Shown piece by piece: positions 7,586 to 39,581 of a stretch of DNA of 64,000 nucleotides. The stretch spans positions 32,001 to 96,000 of the IMG/VR virus record IMGVR_UViG_3300027987_000212; one strand, 5' to 3'. The position numbers and the translations under genes were made by a program. A model generated the notes under the pieces. The model saw only the letters and a program-made list of their open reading frames with translations, was not told where the DNA came from and ran no database searches. Numbering within the stretch: position 1 is the first letter of the stretch; the number at the start of each line of letters is the position of its first letter. Source of the stretch: a virus.

Positions 7586-8992
7586 ATGAGTTTCGGTAAA
7601 GACCCTAATCAGCTAGCCACTATTGGCGGTTACGGCGCCAGCATGACCCAACAGATGGGAAATGCCACCCGCAAGCAGCCATCCAGCAGGAACGGCGCCC
7701 CCTTCTGGGCGAACACGTTCAAGCCAAGTACCGGCACGCCCGACGAGATTCGGGTAATCCCCGGTAGTTATACCATCCAGCGTGTCAACGAGGGGGTGGT
7801 CTACGAAGAGCAACTACCTTGGTTCGAGTGCACCGAACACTACCACGGCGGACTGAGCCGCAGTGTCCTTTGTAGTGCCGGCGTACATCGTATGGACCGC
7901 AACAAACGCGAACCCTGTTGCGGATGTGAGATGTACTGGGAAGACTACATGATTCGAAAGGAGCGAGAGAAGGAGACAGGCAACAAGGTAACCAAGCCAA
8001 ATCGCGTATCGATGCGTAGCCTCTACGTGTTCAACGTCCTTGACTTGGGCTACTTCTTCAAAGCACCCCAGCGCGACGAGAACGGCCACCTCAAGCTGAA
8101 CCCGCAAGACGGCAAACCCTACATGGTCTGGACCAAGTATGTAGGGCAGCATCAAGCAGCCGAAGCTAATGCGCAAGGTGCTGAGGGCCACTGGGGTCAC
8201 GTCATGAGTTGGCCACTGGGGCGCGACCACTTCAACATGCTGAGCAGCTACAGCGACCTCATCAGCAAGAACTGCCTATCCTGCGGCGGACACTCCACCA
8301 TCGTCACGCGCCACTGGTCATGCAACAACTGCCACGCGGTGCTGCTGGACCCTTGGACGGCCAACATGCCTCCAGAGAAGGTTCAAGAGTTCACTCAACA
8401 GCCGGTAAGGTGCGGCACCTGCGGTACTACGGCTTACCCGCACGAAGAGCATCATTGCTCGAATTGCCAGTACCCGCGACCCGCCACCATCTTCGACGTG
8501 AACCTGCACGTGAAAAGGCAGAAGGACCCGTCCACCCAACGTGTGCAGCTCATCATCCCCCAGTTCTCCAACCCACAGGGGCTCCCACCTCACTTCGCCG
8601 ATGCCCTGCAGAAGTTACCAGACCTCGCAAAGCGTTACGCCCCCACACCCTACAACGAGCAGCTCACCCTGTTCCAGCAAGCCTCAGCGCATGACCAAGC
8701 ACAGGCAGGGCAGACTCCCACGCACCAAGCATACGGAGCAGGGATGGCCCCTCCAGGTGGCTATGGCGCCCCTCCACCGGCGCAGGGAAGCCCTGGGGAA
8801 GCTCCAAGCTACCAGCAACCTGGTCCGTTCACGCCGCCAGGGCAATTCGCCGCTCCGGGGCAGTACCAAGCCCCCGCGCAACAACCGTACCAGAACTACG
8901 GACAGCCGACAGCGGCACAACCAGTAGCCACCGGGCACCAGGCAACGGTGGGTACGCCACAAGGTTGGGGAAACGGTAACTACGGGCAGTGA
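7586..8992 (+). CDS. Probable T4 gp32-like ssDNA-binding protein with Zn-ribbon insertion and Q/P/G/Y tail
   Basis: Lies between primase and PolA; TFKP...EIRVIPG and YVFNVLDL resemble gp32-type OB folds; several CxxC pairs; low-complexity tail. Confidence 0.6.
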   Translation: MSFGKDPNQLATIGGYGASMTQQMGNATRKQPSSRNGAPFWANTFKPSTGTPDEIRVIPGSYTIQRVNEGVVYEEQLPWFECTEHYHGGLSRSVLCSAGVHRMDRNKREPCCGCEMYWEDYMIRKEREKETGNKVTKPNRVSMRSLYVFNVLDLGYFFKAPQRDENGHLKLNPQDGKPYMVWTKYVGQHQAAEANAQGAEGHWGHVMSWPLGRDHFNMLSSYSDLISKNCLSCGGHSTIVTRHWSCNNCHAVLLDPWTANMPPEKVQEFTQQPVRCGTCGTTAYPHEEHHCSNCQYPRPATIFDVNLHVKRQKDPSTQRVQLIIPQFSNPQGLPPHFADALQKLPDLAKRYAPTPYNEQLTLFQQASAHDQAQAGQTPTHQAYGAGMAPPGGYGAPPPAQGSPGEAPSYQQPGPFTPPGQFAAPGQYQAPAQQPYQNYGQPTAAQPVATGHQATVGTPQGWGNGNYGQ

Positions 8993-15056: not shown

Positions 15057-15407
15057 GTGACCTTCGACGAAGCCACTCGGCTAAACCACACAGAAGCCTA
15101 CCAACTCTGCCGACACGCTGGTATCCCGTGTCTCCCCAGCGAGCCGAAGGAAGCACTCATCGAGTACCTACTAGGTTTGCGCCAACCTCTTGCTGTAACG
15201 GAGAGCAATCACCCATTCGACACCTGGCGGCACGGCCTCGCTGGCTTCGTACTGGACCACTGGGAAGTGGTTCAGGCGCAACTTCGTTGTCCTCTGCGCA
15301 GCAAAGACCCGCGTTCGTGCTTCGGTTGCCTCGACACGCGCGTAGTCGAATGCCTAGTCAAGAACCCCCGCAATGAGCACCTCATTCAACTACACAGGAA
15401 GACATGA
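15057..15407 (+). CDS. Hypothetical; HeH/Rho-N-like N-terminus and C-terminal Cys cluster
   Basis: LNHTEAYQLCRHAGI...KEALIEYL; CP..CFGC..C. Confidence 0.75.
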   Translation: MTFDEATRLNHTEAYQLCRHAGIPCLPSEPKEALIEYLLGLRQPLAVTESNHPFDTWRHGLAGFVLDHWEVVQAQLRCPLRSKDPRSCFGCLDTRVVECLVKNPRNEHLIQLHRKT

Positions 15408-16387
15408 CGGACTACATCACAATCGACAACGCACCGCGCAGTAGCGAAGAGCTATTCAAGTTAGGCCGGTCTGCACGCTACCGACTAGCCTGCGCCATCC
15501 CTGGGTTCATCATCGATACCGCGGGGCAAGTCATCGCGTCGGCAGACGCCGCATACTTGCAGGCCACCGAAGAGCAGCAAACTCAAATGCTGCTCGAGGC
15601 CTTCCAAACCTACGACACTCAGCAAGGACACACGCCCGCAGGGCATCAGCAGCAAGGACACCCATCAATGAGCAACCCCCAGCAACCAGGCAACCCCCCT
15701 CCCGGCTACGGAGCTCCGCCCCCCGGCTACGCGCCTCAGCCAGGATACGGTGCTCCGCCACCTGGCTACGGCGCCCCACCCCCCGGATACGTTGCACCAC
15801 CCCCCGGGGCGCCACAACCCGGGTACGCTGCTCCACCTCCCGGCGCCCCACCAACGGCACCGCCACAGCCCGGCTACGGAGCTCCCCCTCCAGGCTACGG
15901 AGCTCCCCCTCCCGGTGCACCTCAACCAGGATACGGGGCCCCGCCGCCAAACGCCCCGCCTCCCGGGTATGCACCCCAGCCCGGATACGGCGCGCCGCCC
16001 GGCGCACCTCCCGGACCGCCCACAGCTGCCCCAGGCGCGCCCCCACCCCATGGTGCCCCGCCTCCCGGCGGCTTCGCTCCTCCGCCCCCCGGGGCCCCGC
16101 CTCCGGGAGCCCCGCCGCCTCCCATGGCTCCACCAGGACCCCCGCAGAATCACCTACCCCCTGCGCCCCCGCCACCTCCAAATGCCGGGGCCCCGATGGT
16201 TGACTTCGGCGTCTACGCGGCAGGGTCGATGAGCCTGCTCAACACCATTGGGCTGCTCGTCCTCTACGTCGCCGAACGCGTGTTGCAAACGCCCAAAGAA
16301 CAGCTCATTCCCGCCATCGAGAATGACCTGAAGAACGGGGCTCTGCAGCAACTCCTCGCGAAGAGCGCTCCGCCGGGAAACGGGTAA
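15404..16387 (+). CDS. Pro/Gly/Tyr repeat protein flanked by small folded domains
   Basis: AGGA SD; 11 PGY motifs in PGYGAPPP/APQPGY units; hydrophobic C-terminal helix. Confidence 0.88.
   Translation: MTDYITIDNAPRSSEELFKLGRSARYRLACAIPGFIIDTAGQVIASADAAYLQATEEQQTQMLLEAFQTYDTQQGHTPAGHQQQGHPSMSNPQQPGNPPPGYGAPPPGYAPQPGYGAPPPGYGAPPPGYVAPPPGAPQPGYAAPPPGAPPTAPPQPGYGAPPPGYGAPPPGAPQPGYGAPPPNAPPPGYAPQPGYGAPPGAPPGPPTAAPGAPPPHGAPPPGGFAPPPPGAPPPGAPPPPMAPPGPPQNHLPPAPPPPPNAGAPMVDFGVYAAGSMSLLNTIGLLVLYVAERVLQTPKEQLIPAIENDLKNGALQQLLAKSAPPGNG
15685..16195 (+). repeat. Coding degenerate repeats (PGYGAPPP)
   Basis: Repeated ggctacggagctccccct-like units. Confidence 0.9.
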
Positions 16388-16572
16388 GCGCACTCTGGCC
16401 AGGGTGCAGATTCCCTCACCCCCACGAGTACGTGGAACTGGACAACCGAGCCCTGGAGGCGATGACGCCTCTGGGGCTTTGGCAACTGGCCGAACAACTA
16501 GGCATCGGACATCCCTCCGATACCAGCACTAGTGGACTGCTACGGCACATCAGAAGCTTCTCTGTCGACTGA
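16381..16572 (+). CDS. -1 frame extension (63 codons) reachable by frameshift at G GGA AAC, or a small standalone HeH/Rho-N-like ORF
   Basis: RVSALWPGCRFPHPHEYVELDNRALEAMTPLGLWQLAEQLGIGHPSDTSTSGLLRHIRSFSVD*; fills a 202-nt gap in a tightly packed operon; not in ORF track. Confidence 0.6.
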   Translation, partial: RVSALWPGCRFPHPHEYVELDNRALEAMTPLGLWQLAEQLGIGHPSDTSTSGLLRHIRSFSVD

Positions 16573-16589: not shown

Positions 16590-16991
16590 ATGCGTGCACA
16601 CGAGTTAGCTCAGCTCGAGCCCTGGCGACAAAACCTGGGGCAGTCCGAAAGCATCCTAGCTCCTGCGTGGCGCCCCGAAGTACGGGAGCTATGTATGGGC
16701 GAAGTCACTTACGAGATGTCAGAGGGGGCAAGTACTGGGTGGTGGTGTTGCAGGGTCTGCGGGTTCTGCAGCAACGCAACAACACACAGCCACCACAAGG
16801 TACAGCACCCAGAGAACTACTACCACGACAGCTACGACGCGTTCTTCGAACACCGACGACAGCAAGGCGTGGATGAGGACACTGCCAAGCGTCAGGCGCT
16901 GTTCCTCATTGGGGTAGCTCTTCGGGCAGCAACAGCAACCCCACCGAACAAACTCACCGAGTTCGTCAACCGACTCTTGTCGATGACGTGA
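16590..16991 (+). CDS. Hypothetical protein with CxxC and His cluster
   Basis: GGAG SD; WCCRVCGFC...HSHH. Confidence 0.75.
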   Translation: MRAHELAQLEPWRQNLGQSESILAPAWRPEVRELCMGEVTYEMSEGASTGWWCCRVCGFCSNATTHSHHKVQHPENYYHDSYDAFFEHRRQQGVDEDTAKRQALFLIGVALRAATATPPNKLTEFVNRLLSMT

Positions 16992-31754: not shown

Positions 31755-32048
31755 ATGCCTGTGTTCAAAGAGATGGACCCGGAAGTACTACGTCGACTAG
31801 TCGAAGGGTACGAAGACGTCCTGACTGGGGAAGCAGCAGGTAACGATGCCTTCTACAGAACGTTCCGCTGCCCCCGTGGGTGCGGGCCACTTCAGAAAGA
31901 GTTCGATACCCGGCACACATTCAGCGACCCCGATACGCTCACGCCACGAGCACTGCTCCGCTGCGGGCAATGCGGCTATCTCGTCGAACCACACACCAAC
32001 GCCGTCCTGGAGAGCGGCAACATCAGTAAGGCCATACCAGACCGTTGA
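31755..32048 (+). CDS. Small Zn-ribbon protein on the opposite strand inside the tail operon
   Basis: CPRGCG...RCGQCG. Confidence 0.8.
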   Translation: MPVFKEMDPEVLRRLVEGYEDVLTGEAAGNDAFYRTFRCPRGCGPLQKEFDTRHTFSDPDTLTPRALLRCGQCGYLVEPHTNAVLESGNISKAIPDR

Positions 32049-38780: not shown

Positions 38781-39001
38781 CACTCCCACCCACGGTCGAT
38801 AGCAAACCACTCGTACACGACCAGGTTACCCTCCCCACCTGCCTGGTACACCTCACTGTCCTCGTGGATGACGCTCTTGGGCACCCAAAAGACTGCGCCA
38901 CCTGCTTTCGGCTCTAGCTTGAGGGCCTCCCCACTGTCGAAGACACAACGCACCTCCTCGTGGTACTCGCAAGGGTCCATTCTAGACATGGTCTGGTGCA
39001 T
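38780..39001 (-). CDS. Small beta-rich hypothetical protein
   Basis: FWVPKSVI...EWFA motif common in small phage proteins. Confidence 0.7.
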   Translation of the reverse strand: MHQTMSRMDPCEYHEEVRCVFDSGEALKLEPKAGGAVFWVPKSVIHEDSEVYQAGGEGNLVVYEWFAIDRGWE

Positions 39002-39581
39002 CCTTTGGGTGATTCACCCAGTCACGCTGAGAGACCTTCGCCCACGTAGCTTCCACCGCCACCCTGTAGGGCCGGTACGGTGCGCACTCTCGTCCACAGA
39101 TATAAAGTACGACCCACACTAGCGTGCGTAAGCGCAACTCGTGCTCCTCACGCGACCGACGAATACCCTGCTCTGCCTTCAGGTGGTGATGGGAAAAACA
39201 CTCTATGATGCCAAGGATTGCATCCTTGAAGTACTCGCCCTTCATAAAGGCGAACCGCGTAAGCTCTACTGGTTTCCCCTCCATTACCCAGATGTCGGCA
39301 ATACGCCAACCCATGCCACTGCAGTAGTCCGCTGCGTAGATGGTGGTATCCCCAACTGCGTCTAGGATAGCATCAACATCCCCGGCATCCCGTTCCCGGA
39401 CCAACTCACCTAGCTCTTCAAAGATGCCCAGTAACGGTTGGTGAGGGACTACCGGACCGAAATTGCGGGTACGCCACGCACTTTGCTCATCCTGAAGTTT
39501 GTTCCAGAAAGCGTCGTCAGGTATGTAGTCCCCAGCTACTAAGCTCTCTGAGTTAACGGGGGTGACCATGGTTTTCATCAT
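38982..39581 (-). CDS. MazG-like NTP pyrophosphohydrolase, internally duplicated
   Basis: W..RNFG...LLGIFEELGEL...DAVGD..IY, then HLKAEQGIR...W.KV..RDW. Confidence 0.8.
   Translation of the reverse strand: MMKTMVTPVNSESLVAGDYIPDDAFWNKLQDEQSAWRTRNFGPVVPHQPLLGIFEELGELVRERDAGDVDAILDAVGDTTIYAADYCSGMGWRIADIWVMEGKPVELTRFAFMKGEYFKDAILGIIECFSHHHLKAEQGIRRSREEHELRLRTLVWVVLYICGRECAPYRPYRVAVEATWAKVSQRDWVNHPKDAPDHV

Follow-up and report, generated by a model that had tools for sequence, protein, structure and literature searches.

Introduction

Among tailed phages, the best-known conserved programmed frameshifts are those of tail-chaperone genes and of some capsid genes. In the lambda G/GT pair, ribosomes shift by −1 on a G_GGA_AAN heptamer located at the very end of an open reading frame (ORF) (Xu, Hendrix and Duda 2004, as cited in PMC3483164; PMC5009743). 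The sequence GGGAAAC next to a stop codon is the predicted frameshift site of the tail chaperone pair of phage KL1 (PMC3483164), and the g-t genes of haloarchaeal viruses use G_GGA_AAC and A_AAA_AAC (PMC5009743). Here we analyzed a similar site in a 64,000-nucleotide stretch of DNA, positions 32,001 to 96,000 of the IMG/VR record IMGVR_UViG_3300027987_000212, a virus record of ~57% G+C. This whole stretch is referred to below as the window, and all coordinates are those of the window unless a locus name is given. The original prediction, made from the sequence of the window, was that the gene at 15404–16387 on the + strand contains a −1 frameshift site just before its stop codon, which would fuse a helical, DNA-binding-like domain to a protein rich in PGY repeats. 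Comparison with 19 syntenic loci suggests that this gene very probably uses a canonical −1 programmed ribosomal frameshift to produce a 327-aa and a 389-aa protein.

Results

A slippery heptamer and an open −1 frame at the end of the gene

The 0-frame gene ends in CCG GGA AAC GGG TAA. The G_GGA_AAC heptamer at 16375–16381 therefore has the X_XXY_YYZ pattern in register with the 0 frame, and a single sense codon separates it from the 0-frame stop codon TAA (16385–16387). The −1 frame is open from 16327, following a −1 stop codon (TGA) at 16324, to TGA at 16570–16572. The −1 frame extension on the + strand (16381–16572) consists of 63 codons, from CGG at 16381 to GAC at 16569, and the stop codon, and the predicted trans-frame product is 389 aa long. 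The −1 ORF fills an otherwise empty gap of 202 nt and ends 17 nt 5′ of the ATG of the next gene at 16590, and the earliest ATG, GTG or TTG codons in this frame are GTG at 16432 and ATG at 16462. The original prediction had described this geometry, including the heptamer register, the 63-codon −1 frame, the 17-nt spacing and the 202-nt gap, and every feature was correct on re-reading.

In-register XXXYYYZ heptamers were found 43 times in the ~19,500 codons of the 66 genes in the window, and GGGAAAC was found in register three times. At ~9% of the in-register heptamer sites, the −1 frame was open for at least 63 codons. The pattern in a single genome is by itself only suggestive, and it is the comparative data presented below that lift it above chance. 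Two other canonical heptamers were located near a stop codon: C_CCA_AAG, 7 codons before the stop of a 199-aa gene (38982–39581, − strand) with a 29-codon −1 frame, and G_GGA_AAC, 6 codons before the stop of a 468-aa gene (7586–8992, + strand), where a −1 stop follows after one codon.

When a codon-usage model trained on the window's own genes was applied to the gap, the −1 frame was the best of the six frames, with a log-likelihood of +0.36 versus −8.7 to −23 for the others. The 0-frame gene scored +14.7 for each end.

Syntenic loci in other phages

The 64-aa −1 product was used as the query of an exhaustive HMMER search covering 1.84 billion representatives, which returned three hits. One of them, P0003, was a true homologue of 65 aa, with 52% identity over query residues 6–51 (E = 3e-4). 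The other two were spurious, P0001 being a TPR-repeat protein and P0002 a translated repeat. The contig encoding P0003, designated L001, was syntenic with the window: it carried genes for RusA and for proteins of 141, 272, 65 and 132 aa, followed by convergent genes. Identity between L001 and the window was 49% for the 116-aa protein encoded upstream of the frameshift gene, 33% for the 327-aa protein and 48% for the −1 product.

Further loci were collected from IMG/VR and metagenome contigs by pattern scans with two neighbor-gene alignments (A1 and A4) of the conserved 116-aa protein. The final set consisted of 20 distinct syntenic loci of distantly related uncultured phages, namely the window and 19 others (one Logan contig, together with IMG/VR and metagenome contigs), which fell into ~16 clusters, or lineages, at 60% identity of the −1 product. 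A blastn search of GenBank phages yielded no close relatives. No relatives were found by tblastn of the 116-aa neighbor against phages, by single-protein IMG/VR scans with the 327-aa, 133-aa, RecA-like and InPase proteins, or by word-index protein searches in which the queries were the extension and the N-terminus of the 327-aa protein, and a scan of genome contigs for prophages found none.

The heptamer is conserved in register and position

All 20 loci contained the heptamer in register: 18 had G_GGA_AA[A/C], one had A_AAA_AAA (L014) and one had G_GGG_GGA (L028). The distance from the heptamer to the 0-frame stop was 0–5 codons in every locus and 0–1 codon in 15 of them. In L001, the upstream gene ends in GAG GGA AAA GGG TGA, placing the heptamer at the same position as in the window, and the −1 reading across the site gives K-R-V-K-L-W-P-G-C, compared with K-R-V-S-A-L-W-P-G-C in the window. 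A −1-frame stop abuts the heptamer in L001, which confines the shift to an interval of 10 nt. In all 20 loci, the extension was in the −1 frame and ran open from the heptamer without a gap. Thus, the recoding signal and the −1 ORF are both conserved, and this ORF is start-less in most loci, as detailed below. The original prediction had held that homologues lacking the heptamer, or encoding the extension with a start of its own, would speak against a frameshift; the 20 loci as a set did not show this outcome.

The information content was ~1.7 bits per position at heptamer positions 1–6, versus 0.0–0.8 bits in the 24 nt upstream and the 18 nt downstream. Elsewhere in these ORFs, GGA accounted for 20% of Gly codons, AAA for 19% of Lys codons and G for 35% of third positions, whereas at the site Gly was encoded by GGA in 18 of 18 cases, Lys by AAA in all cases, and the X position was G in 18 of 18. 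The Z position was always A or C. In the 6,123 codons of these ORFs, canonical in-register heptamers occurred at only six other places, none of them near a stop. Judged from these sequences, the slip site is more conserved than the coding of its residues alone would demand.

Two loci deviated from the common arrangement. In L032 (L032:3860–3934), 5 codons separate the heptamer from the stop, and the −1 product has a length of only 25 aa, keeping a WPGA segment and missing the helix-extended-helix part described below; this locus may represent a decaying or minimal variant. In L021 (L021:2947–4032), a sequence resembling the 116-aa protein and the frameshift gene apparently form one open frame of 361 codons ending in ..SSGKG* with GGGAAAA, and the −1 product is without the WPGC motif. 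This arrangement could reflect a fusion, or L021 could be a divergent variant.

The −1 product is a conserved protein with a predicted helix-extended-helix fold

The 20 −1 product sequences were aligned (alignment A5). They share G-K, a variable basic stretch of 2–13 residues, the segment [LVT]-W-P-G-C-x-L-P-x3-D-[VL]-[VI]-E-[VL], and then L..LA..LG[LIV] and L.R.[IL]. Identity between loci was 23–45%, all indels were in-frame, and the extension was 49–78 aa long outside L032. The W-P-G-C codons, at 16396–16407 (+) in the window, were the most conserved part of the product and lie upstream of any ATG, GTG or TTG in the −1 frame. AlphaFold2 produced a pLDDT of 75.6 from the single sequence and of 89.1 with A5, with blocks of 89–96 from residue 11 on. 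The model contains helices at residues 24–29, 32–42 and 52–60, which form a predicted helix-extended-helix part (HeH/SAP/Rho-N-like; 16444–16554, +) with a pLDDT of 91–96. The alignment and the model together argue that the −1 product is a real, conserved protein.

The top Foldseek matches in the PDB were the Rho N-terminal domain, SAP domains and the SAP-like C-terminal domains of MANF/CDNF, all with E > 1, as is expected at ~40 residues; the Rho-N and SAP matches superimposed with an rmsd of 1.8–1.9 Å over ~40 residues. The Pfam Rho_N match of the window copy was below threshold (E = 0.19, 12.2 bits versus a cutoff of 24.9), and the best values among the 20 members were E = 0.014 for Rho_N and E = 0.047 for HeH. 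A feature search of the Atlas gave Rho_N clusters at 0.82–0.84, which is a lead only, and a PDB profile search of the extension returned nothing relevant. The resemblance to HeH/Rho-N folds that had been proposed at the outset therefore agrees with the top Foldseek matches and the weak Pfam matches, and no score reaches significance. We regard the likeness as plausible: the matches to the model are consistent with it and never significant.

Downstream structures are enriched and variable

A 7-bp stem-loop, GCACUCU-GGCC-AGGGUGC (16390–16407, +), with one G-U pair and the loop GGCC, follows the heptamer after an 8-nt spacer. It is a candidate stimulator of slippage and also encodes A-L-W-P-G-C in the −1 frame. 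This hairpin, a component of the original prediction, exists with the spacer that was described, but its sequence is not conserved and it is weak alone. We rejected it as a conserved element because the distance from the heptamer to TGG-CC ranged from 11 to 44 nt among the loci, showing that the spacing is not fixed. Structures with a 4–10 nt spacer ranked in the best quartile of same-locus random anchors in 16 of the 20 loci (5 expected; median percentile 0.125), although the 20 loci cannot be counted as fully independent and self-complementarity is intrinsic to the TGG-CCN-GG codons. L001 had a stem of 14+6 bp at +8 (z = −4.6). Such enriched but variable structures would fit a stem-loop stimulator that evolves freely.

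The hexamer GAAGAG, which had been suggested to act as a Shine-Dalgarno (SD)-like element, is present 9 nt 5′ of the heptamer in the window. It is weak and falls within the upstream 24 nt of low information content, and a conserved upstream SD-like element was not found across the 20 loci.

A second, 14-bp hairpin (16448–16479, +) is located within the −1 ORF. Its loop, AUGA, holds the ATG at 16462 and its 5′ arm holds GGAGG at 16455–16459. Its three G-U pairs restrict it to the + strand RNA, and its position is not conserved in relatives. The 106-nt stretch from 16375 to 16480 folds with −51.3 kcal/mol (z = −4.25), and none of 200 shuffled sequences folded as well. The 14-bp hairpin might affect the stability or processing of the mRNA, or it might block an internal start.

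Counterevidence and alternative explanations

Several observations weigh against a frameshift. The G_GGG_GGA heptamer of L028 is a poor slip site. In addition, heptamers ending in AAA or AAC are much less shift-prone than AAG-ending ones in Escherichia coli (PMC5009743), and a caveat of the original prediction about AAC-ending sites agrees with these data. The complete absence of AAG-ending sites from the loci suggests a host with different Lys decoding. The window hairpin is unremarkable when considered alone (−9.6 kcal/mol; z = −1.0 to −1.4; equally stable folds in 16–34 of 200 shuffles), and none of the downstream structures is conserved across the loci. The 18 codons from the heptamer to GTG 16432 are not coding-like (score −3.2), although they make up a very short stretch, in which the WPGC part is conserved. 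Finally, a start codon overlaps the 0-frame stop in L001 (GTG), L015 (ATG) and L025 (ATG), and coupled initiation is possible in these three loci.

Such an overlap is the usual layout of coupled genes, and it is what would be seen if the downstream ORF were a separate small gene, translated from a start of its own (GTG 16432 or ATG 16462) or by re-initiation at the codon overlapping the stop, with the heptamer being kept for an SD-like GAGGG or GGGA or for the G-K residues. The public call in L001 is indeed a 65-aa ORF, the start of which is the GTG formed by GGG-TGA. The window has GTA at this position because its stop codon is TAA, and the overlapping codon is GTA, CTA, ATA or CTG in most loci. 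The original prediction that the −1 frame has no convincing start of its own held in 15 of the 20 loci, including the window, where the stretch from the last −1-frame stop on the upstream side to the conserved WPGC contains no ATG, GTG or TTG. In two loci the sole start was a GTG located 126–192 nt upstream, within the upstream gene, and L023 had no start codon in the examined stretch, which reached ~90 nt past the 0-frame stop. The earliest downstream starts are at non-homologous positions within the folded domain. GTG 16432, which the original prediction had singled out as a start that could overturn it, encodes the Val of the conserved VEV/VEL segment, so it is inside the conserved domain, and its position as a start is not conserved; the same is true of the position of ATG 16462, which is also inside the domain. 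ATG 16462 is preceded by GGAGG, but at a distance of only 2 nt, and both are locked in the 14-bp hairpin. A separate gene would be compatible with the codon score, which is positive only from ~16432, and with the many genes of this phage that are without a clear SD sequence. It would leave unexplained the rare GGA and AAA codons, the G at the X position and the use of the −1 frame in 20 of 20 loci, and we consider it improbable.

A fusion could also be made by transcriptional slippage, if RNA polymerase added or dropped a base in the G3A3-4 run. The site does consist of a G-run followed by an A-run, and the A7 of L014 and the G6 of L028 come closer to known slippage-prone runs. However, known sites of transcriptional slippage need homopolymer runs of about 7–9 or more, whereas 18 of the 20 sites have only G3 plus A3-4, and the feature that is conserved, a register-specific X_XXY_YYZ including its Z position (A or C), is a ribosomal signature; slippage by the polymerase is thus very improbable. 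The remaining explanation is that the 202-nt gap is non-coding, containing a regulatory or structured RNA, and that the heptamer and the −1 frame arose by chance. In-register heptamers and open −1 frames of at least 60 codons are not rare in a genome with 57% G+C, the hairpin at 16448–16479 is very stable, and the extension has no Pfam or PHROG match. Nevertheless, a protein kept over 20 loci with in-frame indels only, its pLDDT of 89, the best codon score of the six frames and the retained heptamer effectively refute this explanation, to which we give almost no credence.

The 0-frame protein

Homologues of the 0-frame protein were present in all 20 loci and were 182–369 aa long. The window copy (327 aa, ending in ..PPGNG*) has a conserved N-terminal 'xAPR..L..L.R..LA' motif, a low-complexity linker rich in P, G, Y, A and Q, and a helical C-terminal region. 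The linker is the variable part: in the relatives it is P/Q/A-rich and of very different lengths. The PGY repeats (15671–16159), for which the original prediction had termed the protein prion-like, are present in the window as a lineage-specific version of this variable linker, and we rejected them as a feature of the family. Codon-usage scoring was uninformative in the repeat region, where an antisense frame scored higher purely from composition. A C-terminal hydrophobic stretch was considered as a membrane helix and rejected, since homologues show an amphipathic 'L.LL.LAEQ.LG' helix there.

By eye, the N-terminus of the family, xAPRD..L..L.R..L..LA..LG[LI] (15404–15620 in the window; for example, L026:3360–3570), resembles an HeH/SAP motif. 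For the L026 homologue, the Atlas model had weak structural neighbors with SAP or Rho_N (TM 0.2–0.3, residues 1–70).

Genomic context

The frameshift gene lies near the end of a + strand (early) operon that also encodes a RecA-like protein, a PD-(D/E)XK nuclease and RusA. This placement in a replication module, which had been pointed out in the original prediction, is borne out by the genes of the operon, and the locus is not a tail-chaperone locus. The gene is directly flanked by two others on the + strand. The upstream neighbor (15057–15407), the query used to find the relatives, encodes a Cys-rich protein of 116 aa with FDTWR..GLAGF and CFGCLD motifs. The downstream neighbor (16590–16991), the last gene of the operon, encodes a Cys/His-rich protein of 133 aa with a WWC..CG motif. 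Convergent − strand genes, an InPase gene among them, follow beyond it. Pfam and PHROG searches gave no match for the 116-aa, 327-aa, extension or 133-aa proteins.

Cys-rich flanking proteins were seen wherever the loci could be read: the 116-aa protein was present in every locus, as it was the search query, and the 133-aa protein was present in 5 of the first 10 loci and in the window. Their motifs in full are FDTWR..GLAGF...CP...DP..CFGCLD..V..C for the 116-aa protein and EPWR...WWC..CG...H..H for the 133-aa protein. The two proteins may be zinc-binding partners of the frameshift protein.

Discussion

A model for −1 frameshifting and its two products

In the model that follows, the occurrence and frequency of slippage, the binding of DNA and the functions of the two isoforms are all inferred. 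Most ribosomes would terminate at TAA 16385 and release the 327-aa protein. A fraction would slip back by one nucleotide on G_GGA_AAC, with the P- and A-site tRNAs re-pairing to GGG and AAA, and would then read 63 further −1 codons to produce the 389-aa protein. The 0-frame stop, which lies one codon farther on, and the stem-loop that begins 8 nt after the heptamer would probably promote slippage. The ~63 added residues are predicted to form a small folded domain in which the WPGC-x-LP..D-VEV segment packs on a helix-extended-helix of the HeH/SAP/Rho-N type.

Since the 0-frame N-terminus also looks HeH-like, the long form would have putative nucleic-acid-binding motifs on either side of a long disordered linker, and the short form would have such a motif on one side. 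The frameshift would then determine how much of this replication/recombination-module protein is monovalent and how much is bivalent, as in G/GT or tau/gamma. We tentatively consider, as an unlikely extension of this model, that the protein is a scaffold whose bivalent form bridges or tethers DNA and organizes replication or recombination foci in a clade of large uncultured phages. If so, this new family, with no Pfam or PHROG match, would consist of architectural proteins controlled by recoding.

The locus is very probably a new conserved case of programmed frameshifting, in a new gene family and in an unusual genomic context. It would add a well-supported and deeply conserved frameshift in an early replication/recombination-module gene of an uncharacterized family. 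Gene callers miss such an extension or call a truncated or spurious short ORF, as illustrated by the 65-aa GTG gene of L001 and by the apparent 202-nt 'gap' of the window. Recognition of the signal would therefore correct annotation across a clade of uncultured phages with genomes of 100–200 kb. The G_GGA_AAA/C sites (never AAG), with their variable spacers, nearby stops and variable stem-loops, could serve as a natural series for the study of slip-site preference in non-enterobacterial hosts, and the two isoforms lead to the hypothesis that DNA is tethered via HeH motifs.

Comparison with known systems

At the level of the fold, the extension resembles the HeH, SAP and Rho_N families (PF12949, PF02037 and PF07498) in its two-helix 'L..L..LA..LG[ILV] ... 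L.R.I' pattern and in its helix-extended-helix model. It differs from them in its N-terminal WPGC-LP-D-VEV segment, which has no counterpart in these families, and in that none of the matches is significant (Pfam E at least 0.014; Foldseek E > 1).

As in the 10A/10B capsid gene of T7 and T3, a −1 shift a few codons before the stop would append a short extension to the C-terminus of a minor fraction of the product. Gene 10, a structural gene, has a slip sequence different from that of this phage. To our knowledge, its extension contains no recognized domain.

With dnaX (tau/gamma), the locus shares recoding in a replication-associated gene, which would set the ratio of isoforms that differ in their C-terminal domains, and a downstream stem-loop, here a candidate stimulator (PMC5009743). 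The shift truncates the product in E. coli dnaX, yielding gamma, whereas here it would extend it. Moreover, dnaX uses A_AAA_AAG with an upstream SD, whereas in the present family Z is never G and there is no conserved upstream SD-like element; the two are unrelated in sequence.

In contrast to lambda G/GT, the gene is not positioned between a major tail gene and a tape measure gene. It follows RusA in a replication/recombination operon and is itself followed by a 133-aa Cys-rich gene, with no tape measure, and the same synteny is found in L001. The protein, of 182–369 aa with a disordered linker, has no match to a tail-assembly-chaperone (TAC) family in Pfam or PHROG, and its extension is a 49–78 aa HeH-like domain. 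The likeness to G/GT lies in the recoding: both would shift by −1 on a G_GGA_AAN site at the very end of a phage ORF, both would yield a C-terminally extended minor product that contains the whole short product, and both are conserved by position rather than by the sequence of the surrounding genes.

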